Of a stretch of 64,000 bases of DNA, positions 2,472 through 45,912 are shown one piece after another. Below the pieces are notes generated by a model, which was not told the DNA's origin, did not search any database, and saw nothing but the letters and a program-made list of their open reading frames with translations. Each line of letters begins with the position of its first letter. The first letter of the stretch is position 1. Both the position numbers and the translations under genes were made by a program. Origin of the DNA: a virus; IMG/VR virus record IMGVR_UViG_3300042444_000045, positions 32,001 through 96,000 of that record. One strand, written 5' to 3'.

Positions 2472-4772
2472 CTAGAGACTTATGGCTGGAAACACAGTGT
2501 AGATAAAGCCTCCATCACGGAATGTTGTTCCTCCACCAAATCTTTTACCATACTTTATTTTGACAGCTTCTCTAAGCAAATCTTTGTCCATACCCTTATT
2601 AGCTTCAATGTACTCTTCCATTGTCATCTCTGGTTTAGTTGCAGTAGGATCTTTAGCACCCGGAGCCGCATAGACTCTACCACCAGAAGAAGGTGATACT
2701 TGATAGTCTGGATACATTTGGTTAAGAGCATCAGTCTTCCACTTATTAGTAACTGCCGTATTGTAGGCTTGAGCCATATTTGCTCTACCAGCTCTCTTAG
2801 CATTTTGAAACTGCTGATCTGCAATTACATTTTTGTCATAGACTCTGTTAGCCATTTGTTGGTTCATCAACTGTTCTTGGTTTCTAATACCAACTTGTTG
2901 TCCTTCAAACTGATTAGCAATACCAACATTCTGATTGTTAATTCTAGACAGAGTATCTGCAGCAGCTGCAGCCCCCTTACCTTGAATAGCAGACAGTCTA
3001 GAACCAAGAGCTTGTGGTCCGGCAAATTGTGCAGAAGCTTGAGCAGCAATATTAGCTTGTTCAGATTGTGCAGCAAGTTCTCTTGTGGGATCTAAGAATG
3101 TAGGTCTTGGTTCTTCAAGATCAACTCTTGCTTCCCACGGCATCCTTTTTCTAATACCCATAAGATCACCAAAAGCACCCGCAGCATTTACTGTATCCTG
3201 TAACCACCATTCAGCTTCTCTTACTGGGGTTGTTTCAATTGACATACTGCTGTCACCTTCAGTTGTTTCTTCTTCACACTTTAAACAGTTACCATTAGCA
3301 TCTTTACCAACTGTATATGTACTCTTATCAGATTTTGTACAAATACATTCTTCAAGACATGGTTTACAGTCACCCTTTTCATCTTTCTGTGCAAACTTTC
3401 CGGGTATTTCTTTACCATCTTTATCTGTACATGGACATTCTTTTACTGGTGGCTTCTCTTCTGTATAAATTGCTTCTTCTTTTACAACCTCACCTTTTTG
3501 TTCACATGCACCAAGTGTAACTAAGTGTTGATTATATAATTTTGTACCTGGTTGATAACCAGCATATGCAAGAACTTCAGCAGCTGTCTTACCGTAGTGT
3601 CTGCTACCCTTGGTCTTCATGTTTCTACATAGATCAGAGATAAGATTAGGATTTGAACCACCCGATGGTGCTTGCTGTCTTTCATATTCTTTTCTACCTT
3701 CTACTTGTCCTCTTGTTTGATTGTACTTATATTCACCTTGAGCATCTTTTCTAGTTTCCCAAGTACTCTTCTTATAATCCTCTGGGTTTACTTTTGTAAC
3801 TGTTTTTGGTCTAGGAGTACCATCGTTAGCAACTGGTAGATCTCCACCCGTAGCATACATTCTTCTTCTATTTCCCATATAGTTTTGAGACATGCCTGTA
3901 CCCATTGGCATACCATATTCTGCTTCCGGTAGATCATAGAATGGCATATCATAACCACCCATAGACATACCATATTGAGCCATTGGTGCCATACCAGGTT
4001 CTGGCATTTGTTGTGGCATTTGTTGAGGCATTGGTTGTGGTTGGGCAATAGGTTGTCCATCAGGCATTGTTTCTGGAAACTCTGCTTGTGCTTCTTGCAT
4101 CTCTGCCTCAGGCATTTGCTGTTCCTGTTGCATTGCAAGCTCTGGTATAAGATCTTCATCTCTTAACCCCATAGCTTCCATGTAAGGTCTAGCAATTATT
4201 GGAATACCTTGTGGAAATGCTTTTCTAGATTCTTGTGCTAGAGCAAGAGCTCCTAGCTTCATTACATAGTTCTTGATCATAATCTCAGCAGTAGTTCTAG
4301 CTATCTTATCTGAGTTAGGATCTTGAAGTATTTTTCTATAGTTGTTTATATCATATTTCTTAGATAGTTCTGCTGGAGTATAACCACCTTTCTTAGGTTT
4401 TACACCAAACATATCTAGTACTTTAGGATCTGAAATCTTCATAGATTTAGTATCACTATAGATAAAACTATCTTCAGGCAGTAATAATGGTACACCACCA
4501 TTAGAGTGTCTTGGACCCTTAATAGTTTTGAATGATGGCATCTTACTACCATCTAAATTACCTACTACAGTCTCACCACCTTCTGCTTCTAAGTTAGCAG
4601 CTGATCTAGGAACAGCAGTTAGAGTTTTAGAAACCTGTGGTTTATGTGCTCCTATATAGGCATTGTAATCTGCCCCACCGAATGCAGGTACATCATTAGC
4701 AAGAGAACCTTGTACTTGGTACCCGGTTCTTGCTTTTGGAACAGACTTGATTATTCTTACTTTTCTTAACAT
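2472..4772 (-). CDS. Putative cargo/internal virion protein (766 aa)
   Basis: N-terminal NLEAEGGETVV...GPRHSNGGVP motif that I recall from crAss-like internal proteins; Q/P/M-rich linker; two short Cys repeats; Gln/Ala-rich helical C-terminal half. Confidence 0.6.
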   Translation of the reverse strand: MLRKVRIIKSVPKARTGYQVQGSLANDVPAFGGADYNAYIGAHKPQVSKTLTAVPRSAANLEAEGGETVVGNLDGSKMPSFKTIKGPRHSNGGVPLLLPEDSFIYSDTKSMKISDPKVLDMFGVKPKKGGYTPAELSKKYDINNYRKILQDPNSDKIARTTAEIMIKNYVMKLGALALAQESRKAFPQGIPIIARPYMEAMGLRDEDLIPELAMQQEQQMPEAEMQEAQAEFPETMPDGQPIAQPQPMPQQMPQQMPEPGMAPMAQYGMSMGGYDMPFYDLPEAEYGMPMGTGMSQNYMGNRRRMYATGGDLPVANDGTPRPKTVTKVNPEDYKKSTWETRKDAQGEYKYNQTRGQVEGRKEYERQQAPSGGSNPNLISDLCRNMKTKGSRHYGKTAAEVLAYAGYQPGTKLYNQHLVTLGACEQKGEVVKEEAIYTEEKPPVKECPCTDKDGKEIPGKFAQKDEKGDCKPCLEECICTKSDKSTYTVGKDANGNCLKCEEETTEGDSSMSIETTPVREAEWWLQDTVNAAGAFGDLMGIRKRMPWEARVDLEEPRPTFLDPTRELAAQSEQANIAAQASAQFAGPQALGSRLSAIQGKGAAAAADTLSRINNQNVGIANQFEGQQVGIRNQEQLMNQQMANRVYDKNVIADQQFQNAKRAGRANMAQAYNTAVTNKWKTDALNQMYPDYQVSPSSGGRVYAAPGAKDPTATKPEMTMEEYIEANKGMDKDLLREAVKIKYGKRFGGGTTFRDGGFIYTVFPAISL

Positions 4773-4781
4773 AATATAAAG

Positions 4782-7700
4782 TTAAATAAATTGTATTTGA
4801 CCACCGTTTGCCATGTACTCCTTGATCTCTTCATCTGTCATGTAAACTTCTTCTCCGTCTTCAAAGTCATCATCTACATAACCACCCATTTGTGCCGATC
4901 TACCATACCAAGTTTGACCTTGTTCATCTGGTCTGTATAGTCCAGACTCTGCATAGTCACCACGGTCTCTACTTGGATCAGAAGCATAAAGATTATCAGC
5001 AGTAAGGTTATCATAGAAACCTTCCATCTGTTTAGTATCATCTCTTCTATTTTTAAATCCTGCAACTCCACGCATTAATGAGTTACCTGCAATTAGTCTA
5101 GCCTCTCTTTCACCTTGTGAAAGTTTGTTCTTAACATCAATTGCTAAAGGTTCAGAGTATGTTTTGGCAACCTGGAATTCTTCTTGTTGCATTGGATCAA
5201 TCTTGATCTCTGGAGCCTGTGGACCTTTATAGGTTGCATCTACACCATAACTTACAGAACCATCATCATTCTTTTGATTAACTATGCCTTGTGATGACAT
5301 TGCTCCCCAGTTAACTTGTCCCTGAGCACCTTGAATTCCAGAGTTTAAGCTTATTAAGTCTAAGTCAGACTTACCTTGCATCATAGGATTATTAGTATAT
5401 GCTATAGGGCTTTCACCAGTAAATGGTTGGTTATTTCCACCACCTACAAATTTACTTAGTGCACCACCATATTTACGGCTGTTTGCAACTCTATCAATCT
5501 CATCCCATCTTTGTTCCATTTGTAGAACAACTTTTTCTCTAGCTTTATTTTTTTCAGCAGTTGATGCTGAACTATTCATAATTTGATTTATAGTTCTCTG
5601 AGCTTGATCTGCAACTTTAGCTTTTTCTTGTTCCGCTTGCTTTTGTTTAAAAATCCTACTAGCATTTTCAGCTTCTTGATTAGTTACAATACCATCTTTA
5701 CGTGCATTCTGCATTGCTCTAACATAATCAGGATCTTTTTTCATACCTGCCATATTAGGCTTAAATGTATAGTCTTTACCAGCATTAGGATTTCTTCTCT
5801 GTTGTGCTCTGAGTTGATCTAGACTTGGACCACTTGGTGCAGGTCTATTTGTAGGTTGATTATTTCTACTAGGCACAGGAGCTGTAGGTTGTGCAAATGG
5901 TGGATAGTAATACTCACCACCTCCTACAGGTAGTTCAAATGGATTTACACCAGGTTGAAGTATATCAGCAGGATAAGCAGTACCTGACCAAGCACCCATA
6001 TCAATCATTGGATTGAGTTCTTGAAGTCTAGCTTCATATGCAGCCTCTGGATTTTGAATAAAATTGTAATCAATCATTCCAGGAGTTACTAAGGCTTCAT
6101 CTGGATTATAAGGTTGTTGACCTACCATGTATTGTTCTTCAAATGGAACTATACTATCTGTTTCATTTGACATAGGACCAACAGTAGACATATAATCTTG
6201 GAATGCCATATCTGGATAATAAGATCCTTGGTCTAGAAGCTGACGTTCAAATTCCATTTCTGCAGCGCTATTAGGATCCATATCAATATCTTCTGGATTA
6301 GTAACTGGTACTTCAGGAAGAGCTGTAGGAATATTAGCAGCAGGAATATCAACTTTAGGTAAACTGCTATCACCTTCTTGAATAATATCATTTCCTTGAA
6401 CAACATCACTTTCTTCAGTAACATTATTTCCTTCAATAACATTTTCCTGAGTGGTGGCTGGACCCCTATTGAAACCCATCATCATTGGATTTCTTTGTAA
6501 GCTTTCTCTATTAATCTTTTCTTGTTCAGGAGAAGCAAAGAAAGATGGATCTGGAGCCATATCTCTTGACCTTTGATCTAATAATTCAGCTACCTTATCA
6601 TCTATTTGTTCAGGTGTAGGATCTGTCTTTAAAAACTCATCAAGATTTGTTTGGAGATCTGAATTAAGATCACCTCTAACATCTCCCCAAGAAGTAGTTA
6701 AATAATCTTGTGCAGATAATTCAGGCTTTGGTTGAGTATAATCAAAAGGGGCATTCTGATCAATTGCAGTAAACTCTACATTAGTAGGATCTTCCTCATA
6801 GAGTTTTTTAAGTTCTCTATCTCTTTTTCTTTCTCCCTGTCTAATAGCTCTCTTAGATTTACCTTTAAGACCAGTTACATCAGTTCTATCACCATAGCCA
6901 GCATTTTCTAATGCTTGTTGTTTTTGAGATCTTTGTGTTGATTTAGTATCCTTACCCTTTGCTCCATCAAGAGAGATTAAGTTCTCATATCTTGGATCAC
7001 CTTCAGAACCATAGTAAATGGTGTACTTCTTAGGTGTACCTGTAATACCACTCTTTCTTACATCAATAGCAGATAAATAATTACCAGCACCTGGACCACC
7101 TTGTCTAGTTTCACCAGTAACCGGATTGTATATTCTTTGAACTACATCATTCTGTCTACTTCTTGTAAGGTTAGCCGGAATAAAGTTTTTAATAAAACCA
7201 CCACCTTGCATATATGCATCAGTAACATCTTTAGAATCCATGTACTGAATCTGATTTTCAGAGAGATCATTAATAGATGGATCATATCCACCACCAACAA
7301 ATCTCTGTAGTGGCTCCATTGGATTATTAAAAGGATCTGTTACAAACCCACCTTGTTGTTTATAATTTAGAACAGTCGTTCCCTCATTCTCAAACCAATA
7401 TTTATTATCAAGATAGTTGTAACTCTTATCTTTCTTTGTAATATATGCTATAGGTCTAGTTGAAGAATTATGTTTCTTTGGGTCACCTTTATATTTTGCA
7501 AAGGAACCATCCATTCTCTTCCTATAATAGTATCCTGGTTTGTCTTTTATTGTAAAGGCATCAAGTGTTTTAGCATCTCCTTTATCTAATCTATCAATTA
7601 ATGATTGATCTTTTACATCTTTAAAGACAGTAGATTCACCATCCCCTGGTATATATTGCCATTTACCAAGTTGATTATTATATGCATAGTAATCACTGCT

Positions 7701-9383
7701 TCCCATTAAACCAACACCTGAATATCTTCTACTTTCTGGATAAAAGTTTTTAATATCATTTTGAATCTTAGTAACTCCTGGTGCCCAGTCCATTTCATTT
7801 GATGGAGTTGGTAATTGATATTGATTAGCTGGAGGTGTAACAGGAGGTACTACAGGTGGAACAACTGGTGGAATAACCGGTGCTGTAACTACAGGATTTG
7901 TTGCTACAGGAGCTTGAGTAGCTGCTGGAGTTGTTGGTCCTGATCCTACTTCTTCTTTAACTGTAGTAGCTTCATTTCCAGGTGTATTCTTATCTACTTC
8001 TTTAAGAGATTCCTTATTTACAGCATCTATTGCAAGATTAGTATATGTTTTAACAGCATCAAATGTTCTAGTTTTTTTCCTTGACGCAGTACTACTTGAA
8101 CCATAACCATACATTTCTGCAGACATTGGATTGCTGAGTTGTTGTAGTGGTGATGGATCAAAATACATTGTGTACTGTTTTGGACCAAAGAGTCCAGACT
8201 TTCTTACATCAACTTCTCTGAGGTTTGGAATGTTACCAAATCTCTTCATAGATCTTCTATAGAAGCCTCTAGGAAGATCATCTCCTACAATCATACCATT
8301 CCTAGCTTTTACTGTTTGATTCATTGGCTCACCAAAGATTCCACTAGTAGCTTGAGAGTATAATTGTAAGTGATGCATTGGATTCTCTACATCTTGCTCA
8401 GGCATAGGTACACCACCTTCTTGCATCATCTGATCATACTGTTGTTCAACCTGATTTTGCATTGCAGACATTTGGGCATCATTCTTTACAGTATCTGTAA
8501 ATAACTTTAATCTACCCTCTCTAAAGTTTGCTCCTGTTGGGTCACCTTGATTTGGATCTACATCACTTTCATTTGTTCCTCCCATTTGTTTTTTGAGAAG
8601 GCCCATAACAGAACTTACATACTTCTTCTTTGCTTTTTTATAAGCACCACCATTTTGTAGTCTAGAATAATCTACAGTTGTGTTAGCAAATTCTTTTTCA
8701 GCATAGGGTGAAGTTGACTCTTCATCAGAGTTCCATGCCATTTGTGAGACTAGATCATAACCCATCATTGGTTGTACTAAAGCTTCATAGTTCTCAGCAC
8801 TTGGTAGTGCAACATCATACTCTCCACCATCCTGATATCTTCTTCTTGTAGTACCACCGTATCTTTGTTCAGCAAGTGGGTCTAAGGCTTCATCAAGAAT
8901 ATCTGGACCTTGATCTGAATCTTCCATTACAATATCTGAACCTGTGTCATCAAATAGATCATAATCAATATCCTGTTCAGGGTTCTCTGTGATTATGGCA
9001 TCTTTTGTTAAAGGAGCTTCTTTCTGTCTTGGTTGACCTGTTTCCTGCTCATAGGTTCTATCATCTTCTTTCTCAATATCCTCTGTGAGTTTTTCAGCAA
9101 TTGTAACATACAATTCAGTAGCTGCATCAATAGGCACACCCATAATATTTACTAACTGGAAGAGCGTCTTTTCTTTTGCTACTTGGTTAGTAATATCATT
9201 AACAACAAACTGAATTAACTGATTAGTGTTATCTTGTTCTTGTGCTGGTTGTGCTCCTGGATATGCTAGCATAGATGGATCCGGAGTTCCTCCCATTTGT
9301 GCTTTAGCAAGGAACTGGGAAGTTTTATTTACATACTTACCGTTACCATCTGGAGCCTTATAAATTCTTACTTTTTTCTTCAT
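4782..9383 (-). CDS. Large low-complexity putative cargo protein (1533 aa) with many xxGG motifs
   Basis: Long ORF; acidic and Pro/Gln-rich; repeated AQMGG, YQDGG and FVGGG motifs; located in the cargo block. Confidence 0.6.
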   Translation of the reverse strand: MKKKVRIYKAPDGNGKYVNKTSQFLAKAQMGGTPDPSMLAYPGAQPAQEQDNTNQLIQFVVNDITNQVAKEKTLFQLVNIMGVPIDAATELYVTIAEKLTEDIEKEDDRTYEQETGQPRQKEAPLTKDAIITENPEQDIDYDLFDDTGSDIVMEDSDQGPDILDEALDPLAEQRYGGTTRRRYQDGGEYDVALPSAENYEALVQPMMGYDLVSQMAWNSDEESTSPYAEKEFANTTVDYSRLQNGGAYKKAKKKYVSSVMGLLKKQMGGTNESDVDPNQGDPTGANFREGRLKLFTDTVKNDAQMSAMQNQVEQQYDQMMQEGGVPMPEQDVENPMHHLQLYSQATSGIFGEPMNQTVKARNGMIVGDDLPRGFYRRSMKRFGNIPNLREVDVRKSGLFGPKQYTMYFDPSPLQQLSNPMSAEMYGYGSSSTASRKKTRTFDAVKTYTNLAIDAVNKESLKEVDKNTPGNEATTVKEEVGSGPTTPAATQAPVATNPVVTAPVIPPVVPPVVPPVTPPANQYQLPTPSNEMDWAPGVTKIQNDIKNFYPESRRYSGVGLMGSSDYYAYNNQLGKWQYIPGDGESTVFKDVKDQSLIDRLDKGDAKTLDAFTIKDKPGYYYRKRMDGSFAKYKGDPKKHNSSTRPIAYITKKDKSYNYLDNKYWFENEGTTVLNYKQQGGFVTDPFNNPMEPLQRFVGGGYDPSINDLSENQIQYMDSKDVTDAYMQGGGFIKNFIPANLTRSRQNDVVQRIYNPVTGETRQGGPGAGNYLSAIDVRKSGITGTPKKYTIYYGSEGDPRYENLISLDGAKGKDTKSTQRSQKQQALENAGYGDRTDVTGLKGKSKRAIRQGERKRDRELKKLYEEDPTNVEFTAIDQNAPFDYTQPKPELSAQDYLTTSWGDVRGDLNSDLQTNLDEFLKTDPTPEQIDDKVAELLDQRSRDMAPDPSFFASPEQEKINRESLQRNPMMMGFNRGPATTQENVIEGNNVTEESDVVQGNDIIQEGDSSLPKVDIPAANIPTALPEVPVTNPEDIDMDPNSAAEMEFERQLLDQGSYYPDMAFQDYMSTVGPMSNETDSIVPFEEQYMVGQQPYNPDEALVTPGMIDYNFIQNPEAAYEARLQELNPMIDMGAWSGTAYPADILQPGVNPFELPVGGGEYYYPPFAQPTAPVPSRNNQPTNRPAPSGPSLDQLRAQQRRNPNAGKDYTFKPNMAGMKKDPDYVRAMQNARKDGIVTNQEAENASRIFKQKQAEQEKAKVADQAQRTINQIMNSSASTAEKNKAREKVVLQMEQRWDEIDRVANSRKYGGALSKFVGGGNNQPFTGESPIAYTNNPMMQGKSDLDLISLNSGIQGAQGQVNWGAMSSQGIVNQKNDDGSVSYGVDATYKGPQAPEIKIDPMQQEEFQVAKTYSEPLAIDVKNKLSQGEREARLIAGNSLMRGVAGFKNRRDDTKQMEGFYDNLTADNLYASDPSRDRGDYAESGLYRPDEQGQTWYGRSAQMGGYVDDDFEDGEEVYMTDEEIKEYMANGGQIQFI

Positions 9384-9426: not shown

Positions 9427-9445
9427 GTAAACTTATTAAGTTTAC
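9427..9445. promoter_or_regulatory. Palindrome GTAAACTT-ATT-AAGTTTAC (operator-like)
   Basis: Perfect 8-bp inverted repeat upstream of the gene starting at 9383; same core as 2452-2468. Confidence 0.5.
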
Positions 9446-12400
9446 ATCTCTTCTATAATCCAACCACCTTTTTTGTACTCTTTGATCTCAGCATCTGATA
9501 GTTCCATTATAATGCCACCATCAGAATAACCTTTCTTACCAAAATTAAAATTGCCAGTCTTTAATCTTTGAAGTTCATTGTATTGTCTTTCTGTTGCTAT
9601 ACCATTTTGTCTTTTTACACTAGCAATTAAATCTTTATAAAACTGTTTATTTGAATTAGATAAACGTCTACTATCATAAGTATTTAATAACTGAGTAAAG
9701 TAATCTGGATTTTTAATTTCATATTTAGACATATCCATACTACCTAAACTTGATTTAAAAGTCTTAGGAGATCCTGGTAATTCTTTAGATACCTCTTTAG
9801 GAATTTCATATCCAAACTTATCTTCTAATCTTTGCTTAACAGGTTTATCTAAATTATTCCAATCAAATTGACTTTTTGGATTATCTACATAATTAAGGTC
9901 TACAAGTTTATATGAATCAGTTGCCGGATCATACATCATATTATTTTGACCAAAATAATCTATACCAACTTTATTCTCATCTAAAAGTTCAACCATGTAT
10001 TGCAGTTCACGTTTAGCTTTATCTGAAGGTACACCAAAACCAAGAGGTTTATTTATTGGATTTTCTGCACTTAATGGATTACCTTTCCATGGCATAAATT
10101 GTACAGCTTCTGAATTTGACCTTATTACAGTATTACCTTTTACTTTAGGTATTTTTAATGTAAAAGCTTTTGTAGGAAATGCAACATTTTCCATAAGTGG
10201 CATTCCTTCTAAATCTTTACCAGTTTGAACTAAGTTAGCTAAGTCTTCTGAGCTTCCAGGAAAAGTTCCTATTTTAACTACCTCATCTGGATTTAAAGTA
10301 TTAACAAATATTCTACCTTGTCCTCCACCTAACTTTGTACCTTGTTCAGTTAATACCTGTTTTATAGGGAGTTTAGTTCTTCTAAGATTTCTTGCTTCTA
10401 TAGCTTTTTCTATTTCCAATCTTTTTAGTTGTTCTTCTTGTTGAAGAGGTATTCTAGTATTTCTATTTTCAAAACCAGGATACTTATCTAATAATGCATT
10501 TTCTCTTTTATATGAGCTTTTAATTTTAGCATCATCAACAAATTTATTTAATTTACCTACAGGGTCTTTCCAACTAGTTCTACCCATTGCAGAACTATAT
10601 AAACCAGGTGTTTCTAATATCTGTTCAGGTGTTTTAAACCATGCTTGTGGATTTGTTTTTGCAAGATCAACTCCTGCACTTCCAGCTTTATATGCACCCT
10701 TTGCTAAATTAATTCCAAGTTCTGGTATAGCCTCAAGTCCAGCATATGTCAATGGGTTAAGTGCAGTTACATCAGTATCTGTAACATTAGCCATTTTTTC
10801 TCCGCTATACCAACTAGGCATTTCTTTATAACTAGATCCAGTTGATAAGCCAGTATTTTTTAAATAGTTTGCAGGAATTGTTCCAGGTATTTCTAAAGCT
10901 GCAAATGATTCTAAACCTCCTATAGGAATAGAAAATGGCAGGTCAATATCTGTAAATGGAATCTTAGTCATTTTAGCATTTAAAATTTCTTGAGATTCTT
11001 TTTGAGTAAGTCCAGGCATATTACCTTTGTTCATTGCATCTCTTAGTTCAGGACTAAATTTTGATGCAAGCGTAGCTAATCCAGCAAGTGTTCTATCCCA
11101 ATAAGTAGGTTGCAATTTAGAACCATATTTAGATTCAGCAACAATCCCTCTCTGAGTATCATTAAGCTTATCTACATACTGAGTCCTTCTATTTGGATTC
11201 CATCCTTCTTGTCTACTTACTTTTTTTACTACAGCAGTATTTTTGTTATAGTCATATTCATTTTTAAAATTATCTACAAGATAATCTGGCCAGTTATAAC
11301 TAGAGATAGCATTTTTATTACCGTATCCTGTTTTGGTACCCCACTTATCTATAATAAGATTTTTATTATTTTTTAAGTACTGTTTTTTCTTTTTATTAAT
11401 AAATTCTTCTTCAGGGTGTCTTTTTTTATAATCTCTTGCAGCTTTACCCCAATTAGTAAGTTTACCTTGAACAACAACTTCTTGTTCATCTAGTATGTAA
11501 CCTGCAGTTTCATTTGGATCATATGTTCCCGGTTGAAACTGTGTTTTCTTACGCTTAGGTTCTCCACCTTCTTGTTTATAATCTATAAAGTTATTAGATA
11601 TTATATCTTGTAACTTTTTTCTGTACTCTCCTTCATTAAACAATTGATCAGCAGCTAATCCTCTTGCTCCCCATTTATAAGCAGCCTCTGCATATTGTTG
11701 AGCATTAGCATATTTTAAACCTTCTTCTAAATTATCCGGATCTAGTTTTCTATAGTTATTGCTTAAGAATTTTTTTCTATAAACATTTAAATCTTCAAGA
11801 GGAACATTTTTAATAGACCTACCTGTAACTTTATCAAATGGTGCTACACCATAATTATCTGTTCCAGCAACTCTTGATGACCAGGTGTAATTAGAATTAT
11901 CAGGCTTTAACTCAACTGCAAATAAACCTTTATAATTTTCATCAGGTTTTTTTCCCATTCCAAAAAATGGTGTATCCACTGTTAATCCTGATTTCATTCT
12001 CATTGGTGCAGGAGCTTGTGCCCCACCTTTGTTAATTAAATCTTGTAATCCAGCTTTATTGCCAATTTTTCTATATTTTAAATTTTTATTAGGAATACTT
12101 GTTAATTCATTTTTAGTAAAAGGAGTTAATGGTCTAGTTAAAAAGTTTCTATCAAAACCAGATTTTAAAATTTCATCTGATGAATTTGGAGATCCTGGTA
12201 ATTCTCTTGGAACTTCTGGATATCCTTTTAACCAATGTGGTTTGTTGCTTATATTTTCTTGTAATCTAAATTCATCTAGATACTTTAATGGTATTGATAA
12301 TTTATCAGGATCTGTCAAATCTTCTCCAAAATATCTAGGGCTATCAATTATAGCCTGAGGTTGAGTATCTGTTCTTTTTATAAAAAATCTAGAATCATTA

Positions 12401-14304
12401 TTAAGTTCATGCCATCTACTTGTATTTTGAGCTGCTATATATGGTAAATTATCTGGATCAGCTTTTAAATGAAAATAATCTACTTTATTTGATAAATTTT
12501 CTATTTTGTTATATTGATTAGGAATAAATGGATGTTTTATAAGTTCTCCTTCTTTTGGTAAATTTAAAAAAGGAATTTTATTTGCAAATGGATTTACTTT
12601 ATAAGCATTAGAAAGTAATCCTTCTTTTGTACCTATAAATCTTCCAAGTTCAGATGCTGTAGTTTTTGTTCCTTGATATAAAGGACTTAACATATTAGCT
12701 CCCCATAAATCTAATACACCTGTTGCCACATCTGCAGCGGCTTCACCATATTTACCTTCTTGTATTTTTCCTGGAGCAGGAAGTAATCTATTTACTATTG
12801 CATCTCCTGCAAAACCAGAAGCCAGGGCATTACCATAGGTAGCTCCTGCTATTCCACTCATACCAGGTAATGAAGTATTAAATGCAGTTTGAAGATACGG
12901 TAATGCTGCACTACCAACTGTTTCAGCAGCAGTCCATGCTCCAGGCGCAACTGTAGGCCCAAAAGCAGCAACTTGCCATAACCAATCCATCATATCTAAT
13001 GGTTGTTCATGCTGCATATTTTGAGTCATTTGATTTTCATAGGCAGCTATACTAGCGGCCTTTTGAGATTCTATTTTTTTTGCTAATTCTTGATCAGCAA
13101 GTACAACAGAATTTTTTAATCCTTGTAATTGTTTTTCTCTAGCAATTGCATTTTTCTGACTTGTACCTGCTGCATTTTCCCAAACAGTTTGATTAATTAC
13201 TGGTTTAGGTGCACCTTGAACTGGTCTTATTTCTTCAACTGGTTTTGGTTGTCCAGGAAAAAGAGCAACAGCATTCTTATTTAATTCAGCTGCTCTTTTA
13301 CCCTCAGGATCATTTATTGGTATAAAATTATTGCCTGTGCTCTTATTACTAATATACCATTGATTACCTATCTTTTTATATGAAGCATTTGGATTTCCAG
13401 CATATGTATAAATTTGCCCACCATCAGGATATTCATCAATAATAAAACCACCTTTTCTATACTCCTCTATTTCTTCTTCTGTAAGCTCTGCTTCTATATA
13501 GTCTTCTTCTGGATTTTCTTTTCTATAAGACTCATCTGGAGTTATCTGTTTATAATTTTCTGCAAAGTACATTGCATCTTCAGGATTGTCAAATCTTATA
13601 GCTTCTGCAGACTCTGGACCAAAATCACCAAGCATAAGTTGACCATTAACATCTTGTATTAATGGTACTGCATAGTTATCCATAGATGCCATAAAATGAG
13701 TTCCTATCATACCGTCACCAAAGTCATAAGGTTGGTCCGGTGCAACTACCATTCTCTGAGCAGCAGGATTATCATGCATTTGAGCATATGCCAATCTTGC
13801 TTTCATCATAGCATTATTAGCAGCATCTATTTCTTCTTGGGACATTACACCACCATCTTGGTACTGAGCATTAGGATCAAATACTTTTCTTTTCTTAGAC
13901 TTGGGTTTTGAAAATAGTGGGTTCTCAGTAAATAATCTATTAGTAGCTTCCAGACTCCTTGAAAATTTTTTAGATGCTAGACCTTTTTTACTTGGCTTTG
14001 GCATTTTAACCAAACTCTTAGGTGTACCACCCTTCTTAAGTTCAGGATACTCATCCACATAATCTGCACCTGGAAAAGTATACTCACCACCAGGATACAT
14101 CATCTGTGGTTCTCCCATATTAGGGTATGCCATAACAGGATATGGTACACCCTGCATTGTAATTTTGTCAGATGGAATTCTTGTTATCTCACCCGGGTGT
14201 GCCCATTGTCCTCTTGGATCTTCAATAATATTTTTAGGTGTAGCAAATCTCTTAGTCTTATTTAACTCTCTAGTAGCTTTGCTTAATACTTTTTTGTTAC
14301 CCAT
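9442..14304 (-). CDS. Modular putative ejected protein (1620 aa) with protein-kinase-like and possible ADP-ribosyltransferase-like cassettes
   Basis: Kinase-like motifs LGGGQGRIF..VVKIG...IDYFGQNNMMYD..KLVDL; a YRKIG..GLQDL..GG...PFF segment; repeated ELPGSP linker; directly follows the muzzle gene. Confidence 0.6.
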   Translation of the reverse strand: MGNKKVLSKATRELNKTKRFATPKNIIEDPRGQWAHPGEITRIPSDKITMQGVPYPVMAYPNMGEPQMMYPGGEYTFPGADYVDEYPELKKGGTPKSLVKMPKPSKKGLASKKFSRSLEATNRLFTENPLFSKPKSKKRKVFDPNAQYQDGGVMSQEEIDAANNAMMKARLAYAQMHDNPAAQRMVVAPDQPYDFGDGMIGTHFMASMDNYAVPLIQDVNGQLMLGDFGPESAEAIRFDNPEDAMYFAENYKQITPDESYRKENPEEDYIEAELTEEEIEEYRKGGFIIDEYPDGGQIYTYAGNPNASYKKIGNQWYISNKSTGNNFIPINDPEGKRAAELNKNAVALFPGQPKPVEEIRPVQGAPKPVINQTVWENAAGTSQKNAIAREKQLQGLKNSVVLADQELAKKIESQKAASIAAYENQMTQNMQHEQPLDMMDWLWQVAAFGPTVAPGAWTAAETVGSAALPYLQTAFNTSLPGMSGIAGATYGNALASGFAGDAIVNRLLPAPGKIQEGKYGEAAADVATGVLDLWGANMLSPLYQGTKTTASELGRFIGTKEGLLSNAYKVNPFANKIPFLNLPKEGELIKHPFIPNQYNKIENLSNKVDYFHLKADPDNLPYIAAQNTSRWHELNNDSRFFIKRTDTQPQAIIDSPRYFGEDLTDPDKLSIPLKYLDEFRLQENISNKPHWLKGYPEVPRELPGSPNSSDEILKSGFDRNFLTRPLTPFTKNELTSIPNKNLKYRKIGNKAGLQDLINKGGAQAPAPMRMKSGLTVDTPFFGMGKKPDENYKGLFAVELKPDNSNYTWSSRVAGTDNYGVAPFDKVTGRSIKNVPLEDLNVYRKKFLSNNYRKLDPDNLEEGLKYANAQQYAEAAYKWGARGLAADQLFNEGEYRKKLQDIISNNFIDYKQEGGEPKRKKTQFQPGTYDPNETAGYILDEQEVVVQGKLTNWGKAARDYKKRHPEEEFINKKKKQYLKNNKNLIIDKWGTKTGYGNKNAISSYNWPDYLVDNFKNEYDYNKNTAVVKKVSRQEGWNPNRRTQYVDKLNDTQRGIVAESKYGSKLQPTYWDRTLAGLATLASKFSPELRDAMNKGNMPGLTQKESQEILNAKMTKIPFTDIDLPFSIPIGGLESFAALEIPGTIPANYLKNTGLSTGSSYKEMPSWYSGEKMANVTDTDVTALNPLTYAGLEAIPELGINLAKGAYKAGSAGVDLAKTNPQAWFKTPEQILETPGLYSSAMGRTSWKDPVGKLNKFVDDAKIKSSYKRENALLDKYPGFENRNTRIPLQQEEQLKRLEIEKAIEARNLRRTKLPIKQVLTEQGTKLGGGQGRIFVNTLNPDEVVKIGTFPGSSEDLANLVQTGKDLEGMPLMENVAFPTKAFTLKIPKVKGNTVIRSNSEAVQFMPWKGNPLSAENPINKPLGFGVPSDKAKRELQYMVELLDENKVGIDYFGQNNMMYDPATDSYKLVDLNYVDNPKSQFDWNNLDKPVKQRLEDKFGYEIPKEVSKELPGSPKTFKSSLGSMDMSKYEIKNPDYFTQLLNTYDSRRLSNSNKQFYKDLIASVKRQNGIATERQYNELQRLKTGNFNFGKKGYSDGGIIMELSDAEIKEYKKGGWIIEEM

Positions 14305-30624: not shown

Positions 30625-30984
30625 TTATCTTTTTTTAGCCATCTTTTTTAAAGTCATGGCAAGGGCTTTTCTCTTGGGTGTACAAGTTGGTTTTGACATC
30701 GGAGTACAATAACCCTTGTGTGCAGGATTAATTGCTTTCTGAATCCACTTTTTATCACCAGTAGATCCACCTTTTTTTGCATATCTTAGAGGTTCTTCTT
30801 GAATTAATGGAGCTGTACCAGAACTAGGCTTTGCAACTTTATTAATTACACCTTTAACAGTTCTTGTTTCTTTAACTGTTTCTGGTGCACCATATCTTTT
30901 CTTAACTGTTGTTTTATAATTACCATCAGGTGAATAAAACTTTTGTTTAGACTCTCTTGGTGAAGTACTCTTTTTAACAGGCAT
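30625..30984 (-). CDS. Small Lys-rich protein
   Basis: 119 aa; YAKKGG; C-terminal KWIQKAI...KRKALAMTLKKM motif common in aquatic phages. Confidence 0.7.
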   Translation of the reverse strand: MPVKKSTSPRESKQKFYSPDGNYKTTVKKRYGAPETVKETRTVKGVINKVAKPSSGTAPLIQEEPLRYAKKGGSTGDKKWIQKAINPAHKGYCTPMSKPTCTPKRKALAMTLKKMAKKR

Positions 30985-30986
30985 GA

Positions 30987-31349
30987 CTATTTCTTTTTAA
31001 TGGCAGTACGTTTTTTAACTGGACTCATTTTTTTAATAGCAGCAATTTTTTTAACCATACCACCTTTTTTCATTACATTACTTGTAATTTTTTTAGCTGT
31101 ATCATCAATTTTCTTTTTTGCTTCTTTTTCTTTTTTCTTGGCATCTCTTTTACCGGCACTTAAATATGTGCCAATAGCTGCACCAGCACCACCTAAAATA
31201 GCACCTGCTACTTTAACACTTGGTCCAGAAAATGTACCTGGTGATTTTTTTTGTGGTAAACATGTTCCGCCAGGTCCACAATAGTATCCATCAGGGCAAT
31301 CTCCCCCTGTCATACAATTTTGTTTTGATCCAGTTTTCTTAATAGCCAT
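30987..31349 (-). CDS. Small Lys-rich protein with a Cys cluster and a Gly/Ala hydrophobic helix
   Basis: CMTGGDCPDGYYCGPGGTC; VAGAILGGAGAAIGTYL; MKKGG. Confidence 0.65.
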   Translation of the reverse strand: MAIKKTGSKQNCMTGGDCPDGYYCGPGGTCLPQKKSPGTFSGPSVKVAGAILGGAGAAIGTYLSAGKRDAKKKEKEAKKKIDDTAKKITSNVMKKGGMVKKIAAIKKMSPVKKRTAIKKK

Positions 31350-31351
31350 GG

Positions 31352-31672
31352 TTATTTCTTTTTAATAGTTCCACCCATTTTCTTTTTGTTCATCTTTGCA
31401 CCAGCAATTCTATCAGCAGCAGTAGGTTTAGGATTCTTATCAATACCTGCTTTAACAGATAACATTCCAAAAGTAGAACCACCTTTAGCCATTTTTTTCT
31501 TAACCATACCACCACGTTTCATTGTATCGATACCCTGGTAATTAGGACCTGTTGGACCTGTTTGAGGAATACCATACATCTGACCACCTTGAGCCATCTT
31601 CTTTACTTTCTTAACAGCTCCACCGGATTTCATTTTACCGCAACCAGTCTTGCAAGTTTTTAATGTTTTCAT
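31352..31672 (-). CDS. Small Lys-rich protein with five xxGG motifs
   Basis: MKSGG, MAQGG, MKRGG, MAKGG and KKMGG in 106 aa. Confidence 0.7.
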   Translation of the reverse strand: MKTLKTCKTGCGKMKSGGAVKKVKKMAQGGQMYGIPQTGPTGPNYQGIDTMKRGGMVKKKMAKGGSTFGMLSVKAGIDKNPKPTAADRIAGAKMNKKKMGGTIKKK

Positions 31673-31684
31673 CTTATATAATTT

Positions 31685-31966
31685 TTAACAGTTCCACTTT
31701 CTTAAAGACTTATTGATCCTTGAGTTAGGATCATTAGCTGTCTTAGAGCTTGTTAGTTTTTTCTTCATACCAGACATTCTAGCACAAAATGATTTTCTCC
31801 TATTAGCATCTTTACTATCTGGAGCAAGCTTTGAGGGTTTAGTTGTTACCGCAGTTTTTAATTTACTACCTGGATTAGCTTTTCTATATGATGCAACACC
31901 TTTAGCATTAAGACCTCCTGCTGGATTCTTACCTTCTTTTCTTTGCCATGCTGGAGACTTTGCCAT
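31685..31966 (-). CDS. Conserved basic phage protein (DUF6321-like)
   Basis: AWQRKEGKNPAGGLNAKG...RRKSFCARM..SLRKWNC, a recognisable widespread family. Confidence 0.75.
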   Translation of the reverse strand: MAKSPAWQRKEGKNPAGGLNAKGVASYRKANPGSKLKTAVTTKPSKLAPDSKDANRRKSFCARMSGMKKKLTSSKTANDPNSRINKSLRKWNC

Positions 31967-31968
31967 AA

Positions 31969-32151
31969 TTATGCTTTTACACAGTTATTAACTACTTTAC
32001 CATTTAGTACCTTAGTACCCTTTTTAATATAACCAGGCCAACAATTTTTACTAGAACCACCAAGTTGTGCTTTTGGAATAGATTTAGGTTTCTTTCCAGC
32101 TTTCTTCATTGAGATAGCAATAGCTGCTTGTTGAGCTCTAGTCTTAGCCAT
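31969..32151 (-). CDS. Small basic protein
   Basis: AQQAAIAISMKKAGKKPK, AQLGG and CWPGY..G.K...VNNCVK motifs. Confidence 0.7.
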   Translation of the reverse strand: MAKTRAQQAAIAISMKKAGKKPKSIPKAQLGGSSKNCWPGYIKKGTKVLNGKVVNNCVKA

Positions 32152-32153
32152 AA

Positions 32154-32378
32154 TTACTTACTGAATGTTTTAAGAACACTCATTTGTTGTTGAGCAAGTT
32201 TCTTAACATCATTCATCATCTTAGTATCCTTACGAATTTCATCTGCTCTTTTAAGAGTACTAAGTGCTGATTCAATTTCCCACTTTCTCATTTCTGCTTT
32301 TGGAGTAGCAACATTAGTCATACTTGTTGATGCTCTCTTTACAGGAGTTTTTTTAGTTGTTGTTTTTTTAATTGCCAT
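32154..32378 (-). CDS. Small basic protein (start re-assigned to MAIKK)
   Basis: ATG at 32378 directly follows the stop of the upstream gene; KWEIESALSTLKRADEI motif. Confidence 0.65.
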   Translation of the reverse strand: MAIKKTTTKKTPVKRASTSMTNVATPKAEMRKWEIESALSTLKRADEIRKDTKMMNDVKKLAQQQMSVLKTFSK

Positions 32379-32379
32379 C

Positions 32380-32646
32380 TTATCTAAATCTTGATGCCTT
32401 CTTTGCAATATTCTTAGGCTGTTTAACAAATTGTTTTCCTTTACTATTACCTGCAGCTTTTGCTTTATTAGTAGCTGCTTTTTCTCCTGCAGATAATGCT
32501 GACCAAGCTGCCTCGGGCAAGTATCTTTTCTTGCCCTTGGACTTAACTTCTTTGGAAGATCCCTTCTTTTTATTAGCCGCAGTTCCAGAGGTCATCCACT
32601 TTTGTGCACCCCAATCTCTAAGACTTTGTTGAGGATCTTTTGCCAT
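32380..32646 (-). CDS. DUF5872-like protein, C-terminal half
   Basis: QQSLRDW..QKW.T..RYLPEAAW..LS..EK..TN..K...G..QFV.QPK. Confidence 0.65.
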   Translation of the reverse strand: MAKDPQQSLRDWGAQKWMTSGTAANKKKGSSKEVKSKGKKRYLPEAAWSALSAGEKAATNKAKAAGNSKGKQFVKQPKNIAKKASRFR

Positions 32647-32843
32647 TACTTCTTCGTTTTATAGCCACCACCTTTAGCCTTGTATTCCTTGGCCATTAGT
32701 TGTGCTTTTCTAGCTGACCACTCTCCAGGATCTCCACCTTTAGTACCGGCTTTAATTCTCTTGAATATAGTCTCACGCATACCAGGCTTAGTGTAGACAC
32801 CAGCCTGGTTTACTTTGCTTTTAGTTGTTTTCTTAACAGCCAT
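32646..32843 (-). CDS. DUF5872-like protein, N-terminal half
   Basis: YTKPGMRE.IF..IKAGTKGG.PGEWSARKAQL.AKEYK..GGGY. Confidence 0.7.
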   Translation of the reverse strand: MAVKKTTKSKVNQAGVYTKPGMRETIFKRIKAGTKGGDPGEWSARKAQLMAKEYKAKGGGYKTKK

Positions 32844-33727
32844 TATTTCTTACGCATTACCATACCATACTTAGCTTTAGGTACAGCAGTCTTAGGAGCA
32901 GAACTTGTTCCACCAACTCTACCTCTAGCAACTTTAGATGCGGCAGCTTTAGGATTAACACCAGATTTAACACCATGTGACCCAGCAGATTTTAATGCAG
33001 AAACTTTTGCATTAGAATTTACCATACCACCAGTTTTCATTTTAACCTTTCTTACAGGTTTTAAATTATAAACTTCTGTTCCTCCTGTTTCTTTAACTTC
33101 TTTTTTACCAGCTTTAGTATAAGGAACATATAGACCAGTATCTGTTCCACGTGCAGCTCCAGATACATACATACCTTTGCCTTTTTCAGCTTTTCTTTCA
33201 GCAGCTTTTTTATTCATGGTACGTCCACCATCTTGCATTTTTTTAACCATACCCCCAGTCTTCATAATTTTTCTAGATGGTTTCATTTCATTTGAAGAAA
33301 CCATTCCTGTTTCTTTTGCATCTTTTTTACCAGCTCTAGTAAATGGAACATAGGTACCTTTATTATTCTCACTACCAGGAGCATCTTTAGTACCCATTTT
33401 ATAACTAGTAAAGCCTTTACCTTTTGCAGATTTTCTTTCAGCAGCTTTTGCACTAATTGCACGGCCACCGTCTTGATATTTTTTAACAGCACCACCTTTT
33501 TTCATGCCTGGTCCACCCATACCTGATCTAGCATCTCTAACTGCACTAGCAACTTGAGCTGCACTTGCTGCAGTTTTAGCTACATTGCCTGTAATGTTAG
33601 ATACTTTGTCATATGTAGAGGGTTCAGTACCAGCTTCAATTCTTTTAAGTTTAGCTGCTTTTTTAGCATTTCTAATATCTGCACCGGTTACTTTACCACC
33701 GTCATCATATTTCTTTTTAGTTTTCAT
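32843..33727 (-). CDS. Lys/Gly-rich protein with an internal tandem duplication bounded by xxGG motifs
   Basis: Two units of about 75 aa: QDGGR..KAAERK..KGKG..YVP.T.AGKK..KETG..KP.RK..MKTGGMV. Confidence 0.7.
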   Translation of the reverse strand: MKTKKKYDDGGKVTGADIRNAKKAAKLKRIEAGTEPSTYDKVSNITGNVAKTAASAAQVASAVRDARSGMGGPGMKKGGAVKKYQDGGRAISAKAAERKSAKGKGFTSYKMGTKDAPGSENNKGTYVPFTRAGKKDAKETGMVSSNEMKPSRKIMKTGGMVKKMQDGGRTMNKKAAERKAEKGKGMYVSGAARGTDTGLYVPYTKAGKKEVKETGGTEVYNLKPVRKVKMKTGGMVNSNAKVSALKSAGSHGVKSGVNPKAAASKVARGRVGGTSSAPKTAVPKAKYGMVMRKK

Positions 33728-36485: not shown

Positions 36486-37748
36486 TTAAAATCTCTTGAA
36501 CAAATTATTTGGTCTTGAGAGTGTTCTTTGCGGTTTATTACCCGCTCTTCTTGGTTCATCAGACTCTTGTATTGAAGAAGAAGTAATTTTTCTTGCCTCT
36601 TCTGTTTTAAGTTGTCTAACTGTTTTCTCTACAGCAGCCTTAGAACCTTGTTCTTTAATCTTGCCTTTGTATCCTTCTGGATCAGAAAGTAACCAAAGAG
36701 CTTCTGAAATAAGATCATGTCTTGGTTCTACAAACTGATACTTTTCTAAAAGATGTCCTAATAAGTTAGTTTGTCTTCCAGAGATAGATGGATAACTTGG
36801 TTGTACTAATCCTGAGTATAACATACTCTGGGTTTTCTTATCAAGTTTAATTCCATTTAAGTCACCTGCAACAAGTGTGTTATACACATTCTCTGTGTAT
36901 ACTCTTGCTTGTTGAGCTTGTTGTTCTTTTTTGTGCTCTTGTTCTGCAAGTTTTCTAGCTACTACTTCTTCTTGCATTCTGTCTAACTGTGGTTTAAACT
37001 GTTGAGCTTTTGCTTCTAGTTTACCCATATCGGCCCAGTCATTGATTTCAGCTTCAATCTCTTCTGGAGAGCCAAATCTTTTAGCATATAAGTATTGTCT
37101 TGCAATCTCTGCTTGATCATACTCATTACTTGGATCTAGATCAATTACTTCTTCTACCTCTGCAAGAGTTCTAAAGAGAGCTTTTAAATCTGTACCACCA
37201 TCAGCTACATATTTAGCTGCTACTTGAAGTTCTTCAGGAAGAGATTGAAAGAACTCTCTTGGAGTATCTTGTCTGATCTTATTCTCTCTTTCTTGGAAGT
37301 TAGCTTCAAATAATTCTCTGAAGTCTTTAGTAGTATATTCCTCTAATGGTTTGTCATCATCAAAGGGAATAAGTGTACCTTCTTCAATCATCTTTAGGGC
37401 TAGCTCAGAAAGACCGGACTTATCTACTTTAGGTCTTCCTTTGTTACCAGTTTCTTCTTCTTGACTAATCATGTCATCAAGTTGAGCTATTGCTTCATCA
37501 ACTTGCTTTGCTGATACTGGTGCTGCTGGATCAGGATTATCATCTTTCTTGTCAAGGAACGTGGTGTCTAAATCCTGTGTTTTTGAGAACACAGACTTTG
37601 GACTGTCATTTGAACTATCAGTATCTGAGGGTAACATTACATTCTCTGCCCCAGGCATTCCAAATAGTTCATCAATGTTTACATCTACCTGACCTACCGT
37701 TGTAGAGTCTTGTACCTGATCTTCAGGCTTTTTGTTGGTTTCTTCCAT
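36486..37748 (-). CDS. Putative scaffold protein
   Basis: Acidic, disordered N-terminus and helical core; located between portal and major capsid genes. Confidence 0.65.
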   Translation of the reverse strand: MEETNKKPEDQVQDSTTVGQVDVNIDELFGMPGAENVMLPSDTDSSNDSPKSVFSKTQDLDTTFLDKKDDNPDPAAPVSAKQVDEAIAQLDDMISQEEETGNKGRPKVDKSGLSELALKMIEEGTLIPFDDDKPLEEYTTKDFRELFEANFQERENKIRQDTPREFFQSLPEELQVAAKYVADGGTDLKALFRTLAEVEEVIDLDPSNEYDQAEIARQYLYAKRFGSPEEIEAEINDWADMGKLEAKAQQFKPQLDRMQEEVVARKLAEQEHKKEQQAQQARVYTENVYNTLVAGDLNGIKLDKKTQSMLYSGLVQPSYPSISGRQTNLLGHLLEKYQFVEPRHDLISEALWLLSDPEGYKGKIKEQGSKAAVEKTVRQLKTEEARKITSSSIQESDEPRRAGNKPQRTLSRPNNLFKRF

Positions 37749-45587: not shown

Positions 45588-45606
45588 CATAGTAGTTTAA
45601 GTAATG

Positions 45607-45912
45607 TTACTTTTTCTTAGCAGTTCTTTTTACAGTACCACCTTTTTTCATACCTAATTTTTCTTTAATAGCATCACGGTTTTTATAAACTAAAGCACCA
45701 GCAACTCCTGTTGCTAAAGCACCTACAGCTTTTTTAACTCCTTCAGGAATACTACGTTTTCCATATTTAGTTACTTTACCACAACCACTTTTGCGTCTTC
45801 TTCTTCTTTTACCGTCAGCACCTGTATATTCTTCCATACAAGAATCATCAGAAGCACCACCTGTTTGGTAACTCTTCATAGAACGGATCATTTGATTTTT
45901 ACTATCTATCAT
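45607..45912 (-). CDS. Small basic protein with xxGG motifs and a Gly/Ala helix
   Basis: SYQTGG, RRRRRK, AVGALATGVAGALVY, MKKGG. Confidence 0.65.
   Translation of the reverse strand: MIDSKNQMIRSMKSYQTGGASDDSCMEEYTGADGKRRRRRKSGCGKVTKYGKRSIPEGVKKAVGALATGVAGALVYKNRDAIKEKLGMKKGGTVKRTAKKK

Follow-up and report, generated by a model that had tools for sequence, protein, structure and literature searches.

Few known viruses are as abundant as crAss-like phages. How do these pack megadaltons of protein into the head and deliver it, and could a short peptide ending in Gly-Gly (GG) be part of the answer? The peptide, [M/Y]-x-x-G-G, recurs in proteins encoded by a 64,000-nucleotide stretch of viral DNA (hereafter the window), positions 32001-96000 of the 117,768-base IMG/VR record IMGVR_UViG_3300042444_000045, which is rated 99% complete; judged by its genes, the virus is a crAss-like phage. 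A sequence-only reading of the window had proposed that the motif is either a processing site or a packaging code. That proposal stood in so far as the motif is non-random, is confined to three large proteins encoded past the muzzle gene and to hypervariable small Lys-rich proteins of the head module, and lies at module borders. Its parallel with adenovirus, African swine fever virus (ASFV), SUMO and C39 proteases did not, because neither a clan CE nor a C39 peptidase was found and the hydrophobic residue before the Gly pair is shifted by one position. The motif is under protein-level selection, its sites fall at N-termini, shortly (4–8 residues) before C-termini and, in polyvalent proteins, where swappable cassettes begin and end, and it forms a conserved island within indel-rich sequence: a real, lineage-specific and unexplained signal. 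We infer that the proteins bearing it are packed in the head and ejected, and that the motif is read by another protein. Our preferred reading, held tentatively and somewhat short of an even chance, is that it is a processing site.

Every pentapeptide listed in the sequence-only reading is present in the translations. The 1533-amino-acid (aa) protein carries AQMGG (twice), QRYGG, YQDGG, LQNGG, KQMGG, MQEGG, KQQGG, FVGGG (twice), MQGGG, RKYGG and MANGG; the 1620-aa protein LKKGG, YQDGG, YRKGG, YPDGG, KQEGG, YSDGG and YKKGG; the 766-aa protein YATGG, KRFGG and FRDGG; and the small proteins AKKGG, MKKGG, MKSGG, MAQGG, MKRGG, MAKGG, AQLGG, YDDGG, MKTGG, MQDGG and YQTGG. All of the genes concerned lie on the minus strand, where the sequence-only reading had placed them, and apart from the motif their products have no mutual similarity. 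When each of the 127 open reading frames (ORFs) of the whole genome was shuffled 2000 times with its composition preserved and without a pre-chosen set, [MY]xxGG was expected 14.2 ± 3.7 times; the 39 copies observed exceed the shuffle maximum of 28, which confirms the excess by the composition-matched test that had been suggested with the motif. Individually enriched were the proteins of 1620 aa (6 versus 0.69 expected, p = 0.0005), 294 aa (6 versus 0.50, p = 0.0005), 106 aa (4 versus 0.37, p = 0.001), 1533 aa (5 versus 0.89, p = 0.0025; GG alone, 19 versus 9.9, p = 0.0015) and 101 aa (2 versus 0.17, p = 0.0095). For the 766-aa protein, the core motif was not significant (2 versus 0.55, p = 0.10) and GG alone was (11 versus 5.95, p = 0.03).

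Met or Tyr stands at position -3 of the first Gly in 25 of 61 GG sites of the 11 proteins named by the sequence-only reading (background 8.1%, binomial p = 2.6e-12) and in 10 of 96 sites of the remaining proteome (p = 0.18; Fisher p = 1.1e-5 between sets), the first set having been chosen post hoc and the comparison set being taken without a 2560-aa collagen-like protein. The initial pattern, [K/R/E]-(M/Y/F/A/L)-x-x-G-G, was looser than the statistics support, which point to the core K-[M/Y]-[K/Q/A]-x-G-G with a small residue next and V or I after it. Restriction to cargo and basic proteins, also claimed at the outset, is nearly right: the large terminase TerL has no copy and the giant RNA polymerase (RNAP)-related proteins have 0–1, but the major capsid protein (MCP) and the portal have one each and the muzzle has three (p = 0.04).

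The placement of the three large genes suggests where their products travel. The head and tail genes include the MCP gene (34841-36457; Pfam Crass_capsid, 1.6e-31), that of the 1871-aa muzzle protein (14304-19919; crAss_MUZ, 1.4e-20), matches to ring protein 1 and ring protein 2 (19919-20998 and 20998-21660), and PHROG matches to portal (4e-90) and large terminase (5e-56). Past the muzzle gene come the genes of the 1620-, 1533-, 766- and 1008-aa proteins and then, outside the window, relatives of crAss001 gp47, gp50 and gp49, which is the crAss001-type placement of cargo genes: past the muzzle and before the RNAP-related giant proteins. Passages of the crAss001 structural study describe the genes past the muzzle as encoding cargo proteins inside the virion (PMC10172136). 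From this gene position, the 1620-, 1533- and 766-aa proteins are probably head cargo. None of the three has a solved sequence relative in the PDB, and no relative of the 1533- or 1620-aa protein was found among GenBank phages.

The relation between motif and cassettes is clearest in the 1620-aa protein (9442..14304, minus strand), which is encoded directly past the muzzle gene, has 12 GG sites, six of them [MY]xxGG, and returned no match in Pfam, PHROG or PDB sequence searches. Its residues 1-330, used as query, retrieved at least 700 family proteins of 891-2835 residues, in which the domains Amidase_2, Phage_lysozyme, SET, NLPC_P60, YkuD, ART-PolyVal and PG_binding_1 appear in shifting orders; such variable combination of unrelated effector domains in a late or virion gene block is what marks a polyvalent protein. 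In the 120 listed members of this family, to which the family counts of motif excess, C-terminal module and breakpoints refer, [MY]xxGG occurs 585 times against 86.7 ± 9.3 in shuffled sequences (maximum 118). Across 976 cargo-family contexts Tyr takes position -3 in 29%, and the information lies mainly before Gly-Gly.

Where homology begins and ends along this protein, the motif is often close by. A conserved N-domain (residues 26-93; 14026..14229, minus strand), with columns that are nearly invariant in 40 aligned relatives, ends in P-E-L-K-K-G-G, and 39 of 82 internal ends of tblastn high-scoring segment pairs (HSPs) fall at residues 92-94, the site of L-K-K-G-G; others fall at 152 and 291, which are motif sites too (ends <30 nucleotides from a contig end or ≤5 residues from the query ends were dropped). 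A helix-GG-strand module at residues 274-291, followed by YPDGG at 292-296 (13417..13485, minus strand), is an internal instance, past the N-domain and with another motif copy behind it, of the type of module that otherwise closes the protein; the homology blocks of relatives stop at 291. The C-terminal module itself (residues 1593-1620; 9445..9528, minus strand) consists of YSDGG, a strand-helix, YKKGG and a last strand, and a strict helix-G-[G/Y/W]-strand pattern is C-terminal in 78 of 120 family members, the remainder being mostly variants; some relatives carry the module inside the chain. In the alignment of 40 relatives, three separate insertions sit exactly at motif sites with a motif copy on either side: a 65-aa insert between P-Q-M-Q-D-G-G and P-Q-M-K-R-G-G, a SET-like insert between L-K-K-G-G and F-K-K-G-G, and a zinc-ribbon insert between Y-A-K-G-G and A-Q-K-G-G. 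Family-wide, 1001 of 4937 homology breakpoints lie ≤8 residues from GG, against 623 ± 23 for random positions (1.6x; HSPs <40 residues and ends <20 residues from a terminus dropped, ends ≤4 residues apart merged), although neither these breakpoints nor the HSP ends count as independent events because the loci and proteins are related. At Pfam domain borders in four family members, GG is sometimes close (3, 5, 10 and 15 residues) and sometimes far (40-450 residues).

The other two large proteins carry conserved motif modules at their ends. Encoded at 4782..9383 (minus strand), the 1533-aa protein has 19 GG dipeptides forming 15 separate GG sites, and across eight orthologues its motif columns have a mean identity of 0.64, compared with 0.49 for the flanks, with the motif higher at 12 of 15 sites. 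It ends in M-T-D-E-E-I-..-Y-M-A-N-G-G-Q-I-Q-F-I, directly before the stop codon (4785..4841, minus strand). This end, M-T-[D/E]-E-E-[I/L]-..-A-N-G-G-x-[I/V]-E-[F/Y]-[I/L] in the family, recurs with an invariant Gly-Gly in 20 of 20 relatives, even where identity across the final 60 residues is as low as 24%. The 766-aa protein (2472..4772, minus strand) has a C-terminal F-R-D-G-G-F-I-Y... module and a conserved first 80 residues with GG at 32-33 and 65-66; in 20 relatives this N-terminal part has a mean column identity of 65% and 18 invariant columns. It includes an invariant V-P-R-x-x-A-N-L-E-A-E-G-G-E stretch, for which Pfam and PDB gave no relatives. Distant relatives have 12-residue N-terminal leaders ending in Y-x-x-G-G. 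A complex predicted from the last 60 residues of the 1533-aa protein and the first 80 of the 766-aa protein scored 0.22 against a mark of 0.32, which weighs neither way.

The small proteins lie in a block of nine Lys-rich ORFs of 60-294 aa (30625..33727, minus strand), six of them with GG motif copies, between the AUX-position gene and the gene of a 232-aa virion protein. Portal relatives were plentiful (583 of 598 candidate stretches); 80 loci were retained, and in the 24 of these with both flanking genes the block is hypervariable, measuring 1.9-4.7 kb with 5-10 ORFs. Across relatives the MCP is 90-99% identical, whereas the 106-aa protein (31352..31672, minus strand), with its five copies MKSGG, MAQGG, MKRGG, MAKGG and KKMGG, is only 36-84% identical; in the 20 relatives that make up its family, the conserved columns are the motif copies. 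The 294-aa protein (32843..33727, minus strand) has nine GG sites, including twice a paired M-K-x-G-G-x-V-K-K-[Y/M]-Q-D-G-G, and its residues 1-11 form a short N-terminal leader ending in the motif. Outside the block, a 101-aa Lys/Arg-rich protein (45607..45912, minus strand) has YQTGG near its N-terminus and MKKGG nine residues before its C-terminus. The block is thus a variable locus whose small products, which would reside in the head, have just a short signal in common.

From 325 contexts, only distinct ones being counted, the logo of the small proteins reads K-M-K-K-G-G-[S/A/T]-V-K-K, often with a second Gly-Gly seven residues upstream. Met occupies -3 in 39% of them and Lys -4 in 50%, -2 in 44%, -1 in 39% and +4 in 41%; a small residue directly follows Gly-Gly in 53%. 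The only Pfam family within the block is DUF6321 (31685-31966, 1.1e-21). A DUF5856 protein (29402-29920, minus strand, 2.4e-14) is encoded in the head module among Lys-rich genes. The products of 30987-31349 and 45607-45912 (minus strand) each have a Gly/Ala-rich hydrophobic stretch resembling a membrane helix and a Cys-rich N-terminal part, and the latter gene, that of the 101-aa protein, adjoins an endolysin gene (46080-46547, Peptidase_M15_3) and an Rz-like spanin gene (47309-47689).

The gp45 of crAss001 has 20 GG sites in a Gly-rich chain, copies of F-A-x-G-G or A-[Y/F]-G-G at 17-21, 206-210, 260-264, 329-333, 424-428 and 559-563, and a C-terminus reading K-K-A-K-G-G-K-V-R-T-K-K-K-K...; the motif-like copies bracket the pieces resolved by cryogenic electron microscopy (cryo-EM), 214-245 and 425-552. 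According to passages of PMC10172136, gp45 (C1) was located inside the virion by cryo-EM and mass spectrometry, where it binds portal, rings and muzzle via short segments. At E ≤ 0.01, blastp gave no match of the 1620-, 1533- or 766-aa protein to gp45 or gp46, and the 1008-aa protein, alone among the genes in cargo position, matches gp45 weakly (0.002). crAss001 lacks a counterpart to the block of small Lys-rich proteins with the motif. Among the cultured phages checked as a possible test bed, the motif was not found in Cellulophaga phi4:1, the virion proteins of which are annotated by mass spectrometry, or in Flavobacterium Fpv3, and the head-tail region of Leptolyngbya Lbo-JY46 has no excess (4 versus 4.3 expected). 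A literature search on cleavage of crAss001 cargo proteins returned nothing. Elsewhere, the T5 tape-measure protein is reported in part of PMC10038345 to be cut after R1127; its likeness to [M/Y]-x-x-G-G could not be confirmed.

Cutting is favoured because cassettes are flanked by the motif on both sides, short leaders end in it, the information lies mostly before Gly-Gly, the effectors have different destinations and a candidate enzyme exists. Polyvalent cargo would be cut at its joints into separate effectors, so that wall hydrolases could act in the periplasm and SET or ART enzymes in the cytoplasm, and the Lys-rich precursors would yield short basic peptides travelling with the DNA. The cutter would be a virion-packed protease, for which the HExxH...E domain of a neighbouring 4070-aa cargo protein is the candidate. 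That protein is encoded 7.3-19.5 kb before the window (record 12457-24669, minus strand) and combines a portion resembling crAss001 gp50 (RNAP, 5e-13) with the HExxH portion of gp47; among its relatives, domains of the ART, kinase/zeta, PIF1/RecD helicase, AlkB, YbiA and RNase H types are exchanged. All 30 of the 30 relatives compared, some as low as about 36% identity, have an invariant Y-H-E-[A/S]-[W/F]-H and, downstream of it, an invariant E-E-M-L-A-E-D-F. The HExxH segment aligns to residues 2155-2209 of crAss001 gp47 (E = 2e-9), and the domain also matches 23 crAss-like GenBank records. Passages of PMC5512222 define zincin-like peptidases by HExxH on one helix, a Glu on the next and a three-stranded sheet ahead of both, and propose them as processors of polyvalent proteins; they also describe the N4 virion RNAP as packed uncut. 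In part of the phi14:2 RNA polymerase preprint (10.1101/2020.03.07.982082), a crAss-like virion protein is described as having a zincin-like domain, and fused forms as likely cleaved; this description, together with the invariant HExxH...E, is why an enzyme candidate exists. A literature search for a crAss-like HExxH or zincin domain gave, as relevant items, only that preprint and an N4 paper.

No better candidate emerged from the rest of the record. The sequence-only reading had recognised no protease gene in the window, correctly for the window, and had pointed to the remaining genome for a C5-, C48- or C39-like enzyme; six-frame profile searches covering all 117.8 kb yielded 0 matches at E ≤ 10 for clan CE (PF00770, PF02902, PF03290) and for C39 (PF03412). 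The same held in six-frame searches for the prohead proteases PF03420 (S77, gp21-type) and PF04586 (S78, HK97 type), and Clp (PF00574) was not found. Pfam scans of 119 of 127 ORFs, which left the 2560-aa protein outside, showed no maturation protease among the 25 of 35 families listed; nor did Pfam find a protease in the 4070-, 2238- and 1871-aa proteins, in the 1620-, 1533- and 766-aa proteins with an 801-aa part of the 1008-aa protein, or in 20 late proteins, or PHROGs in 22 proteins. The HExxH...E domain is thus the sole candidate protease observed, with a putative fold and a putative target. Both its HExxH and its Glu segment are predicted helices with a predicted local distance difference test (pLDDT) score of 67-90, in an AlphaFold2 model with a mean pLDDT of 51 and a sheet region below 50. 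Pfam and PDB sequence and profile searches returned nothing credible for it. A protein atlas gave mostly unnamed clusters, with an LPD1 cluster (0.92, at rank 29) that serves as a lead only. A second HExxH in the genome occurs in a 136-aa early protein.

Several observations weigh against cutting, and some of these fit better with a motif that stays in place. The searches gave no dedicated protease of the prohead, clan CE, C39 or Clp types. The HExxH domain matched no Pfam peptidase model, PF18818 and PF18796 included. Aligned by hhalign to the C1 domain of the N4 virion RNAP, it overlapped only at the motif (probability 0.47%); its model found nothing at E ≤ 0.001 in Foldseek (best E = 0.78), and its best VIA Z score of 5.4 is in a range common for helical models, with metalloprotease rows at 4.4-4.7, level with unrelated helical proteins. 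The giant proteins that would carry the protease are themselves built of cassettes and have 0–1 motif copies. The crAss001 virion gel bands of 150, 270 and >300 kDa, reported in part of PMC6235969, fit uncut giant proteins, and proteolysis, like a scaffold, is not mentioned in the main text of the crAss001 structural paper (PMC10172136). In that structure, the modelled gp45 stretch 425-552 runs across an A-F-G-G-W copy, so the bond appears to be intact there. Finally, the terminal modules conserve residues after Gly-Gly and admit Q, L, D, K or S in place of their first Gly, and 38 of 325 small-protein contexts lie 4–8 residues before the C-terminus with none at 0–3, which is odd for mere cut sites.

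Some of these points would suit an uncut loading or docking handle, in which the motif and its flanks, as in the K-M-K-K-G-G-x-V-K-K-K tails, the helix-GG-strand C-terminal module and the N-terminal leaders, serve as an address peptide of the T4 capsid-targeting or encapsulin kind and are not removed. Read by a scaffold, the capsid inner face, the portal or another cargo protein, it would bring unrelated proteins into the procapsid. We regard this as possible but doubtful. The placement of those 38 contexts just short of the C-terminus, the presence of a C-terminal module in 78 of 120 members of the 1620-aa family and, for the 1533-aa protein, in 20 of 20 relatives, the conservation on either side of Gly-Gly and the sharing of just this peptide by otherwise unrelated proteins all speak for it. 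So do the lack of a known-type maturation protease, the giant proteins' lack of the motif and the example of gp45, in passages of PMC10172136 a virion-internal protein with short binding segments, which has a K-K-A-K-G-G-K-V tail and A-[Y/F]-G-G brackets. But a handle need not flank each inserted cassette on both sides, no receptor was identified, and cargo-family information lies mostly before Gly-Gly. Moreover, the internal copies observed keep GG where terminal modules relax it, which suggests a need specific to internal joints. Alternatively, Gly-Gly could act as a passive, flexible hinge or turn, so that cassettes would fold and thread the tail independently of one another, and the shared peptide would persist as cassettes are shuffled with their linkers. 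Cassette borders and homology breakpoints do coincide with the motif, the Gly-Gly of the C-terminal module sits between a helix-like and a strand-like pattern, and cargo passes narrow constrictions partly unfolded in the description given in part of PMC10172136. A hinge, however, needs no Met or Tyr at -3, no K or Q at -2 and no V or I at +2; copies 11-17 residues from an N-terminus or 4–8 from a C-terminus have nothing to hinge; and up to five copies in the 106-aa protein are left unexplained, so that we consider a passive joint improbable.

Two further explanations fare worse. In the small proteins the motif is set in Lys runs and several of the genes belong to a head module beside the DUF5856 gene, as might be expected if these head proteins were histone- or protamine-like and the motif bound DNA in the manner of SPKK or AT-hook peptides; but the large proteins carry acidic copies such as Y-Q-D-G-G, Y-P-D-G-G and E-E-I-E-E-Y-R-K-G-G-F-I-I-D-E, which makes the same DNA-binding mode impossible for them, and we give this explanation very little weight. 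That the motif simply reflects chance or composition in low-complexity sequence rich in Gly, Lys, Met and Tyr is next to inconceivable, even though the small proteins are of low complexity, the broad pattern would often match by chance and the 766-aa protein is not significant alone: shuffles never reach the observed counts (28 versus 39; 118 versus 585), and the positions are conserved in orthologues to about 35% identity. The genome and family shuffles and the orthologue column conservation together rule it out. The preferred reading, that the motif is a processing site, can be put in a more specific form, for which our confidence is low: a head-packed protease, either the HExxH domain of the RNAP-linked giant or an unrecognised enzyme, would cut polyvalent cargo at [M/Y]-x-x-G-G and Lys-rich precursors into DNA-riding peptides, with the copies at chain ends doubling as a loading address.

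Other features of the window bear on head assembly and the virion more generally. A 420-aa protein encoded between portal and MCP (36486-37748, minus strand) has no family matches; its model is all-helical with a mean pLDDT of 60, disordered residues 1-82 and a basic C-terminal tail. Being predicted all-helical, it looks like a scaffold and not like a protease, and it is likely the scaffolding protein. Three Lys-poor (1-2% K), Cys-rich proteins of 554, 644 and 544 aa (23243-29337, minus strand), one with a C-G-C-N-T-G repeat end, are probably fibres. The 2560-aa ORF (51187-58869, minus strand) is 27.8% Gly and 13.7% Gln and has 19 GG against 197 in shuffles, a deficit that suggests collagen-like G-x-y periodicity; it sits in a jump of GC content from about 0.33 to 0.42-0.50, and the gene next to it (59089-59976) matches a PHROG of virion structural proteins. 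Early genes, past the window end and at 63024-63656, have Pfam matches to SET, ClpS, spore photoproduct lyase, 4HBT, PRA-PH and UDG, with a PHROG 'ferredoxin' at 63024-63656 (3e-65).

A cargo-labelling peptide would let the ejected proteome of uncultured relatives be read from sequence, show effector cassette boundaries and give an experimental handle. Should its sites be cut, a tailed phage would have a new kind of maturation specificity that also supplies DNA-bound peptides; should they stay intact, the peptide would be a portable packaging tag that might serve to bring foreign proteins into phage heads. Among known systems, crAss001 gp45 and, in passages of PMC10172136, its setting resemble the large proteins here in a gene past the muzzle, a Gly-rich chain, GG copies that bracket resolved pieces and a basic K-G-G-K-V tail; unlike them, gp45 has a weaker form of the motif and no blastp similarity at E ≤ 0.01, and is not accompanied by a small Lys-rich block. 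Phage-type polyvalent proteins, as described in passages of PMC5512222, likewise reorder lysozyme, ART and other effectors in large late-gene proteins and have a zincin-type HExxH...E signature in the same gene block, with processing proposed; the differences are that motif chains and the HExxH chain are separate here, that the MPTase-PolyVal model gave no match and that those passages describe no conserved joint peptide. In the present phage, a conserved peptide does lie at the cassette border, and short terminal peptides mark unrelated putative cargo.

Both of these traits have counterparts elsewhere. In encapsulins, a short terminal peptide of unrelated cargo serves for loading into an HK97-fold shell, and in polymorphic toxins a conserved junction peptide stands where variable cassettes exchange; the [M/Y]-x-x-G-G peptide differs from both in being internal and multi-copy as well, and no sequence relation is claimed. 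In T4, a capsid-targeting sequence on IPI-III and Alt is removed by the prohead protease gp21. There, as would be the case here, small basic proteins inside the head, encoded at a variable locus, have only a short peptide in common with larger enzymes that are injected, although in our case the peptide is a different one that is N-terminal, C-terminal and internal and often multi-copy, no S77 (PF03420) protease was found and removal is putative. Cleavage after Gly-Gly, at (M/I/L)-x-G-G, is carried out by adenain on the precursors pVII and pX and by pS273R on the ASFV polyproteins, clan CE enzymes to which poxvirus I7 and Ulp/SENP also belong. With the adenain and pS273R sites the phage motif shares a hydrophobic residue before Gly-Gly, sites in small basic DNA-associated precursors as well as in larger internal proteins, and close pairs of sites; it differs in that [M/Y] stands one place further from Gly-Gly, no clan CE peptidase was found and the setting is a tailed phage with an HK97-type capsid. 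If the cutting code is true, it would be a functional parallel to adenovirus core-protein maturation that arose independently in crAss-like phages.

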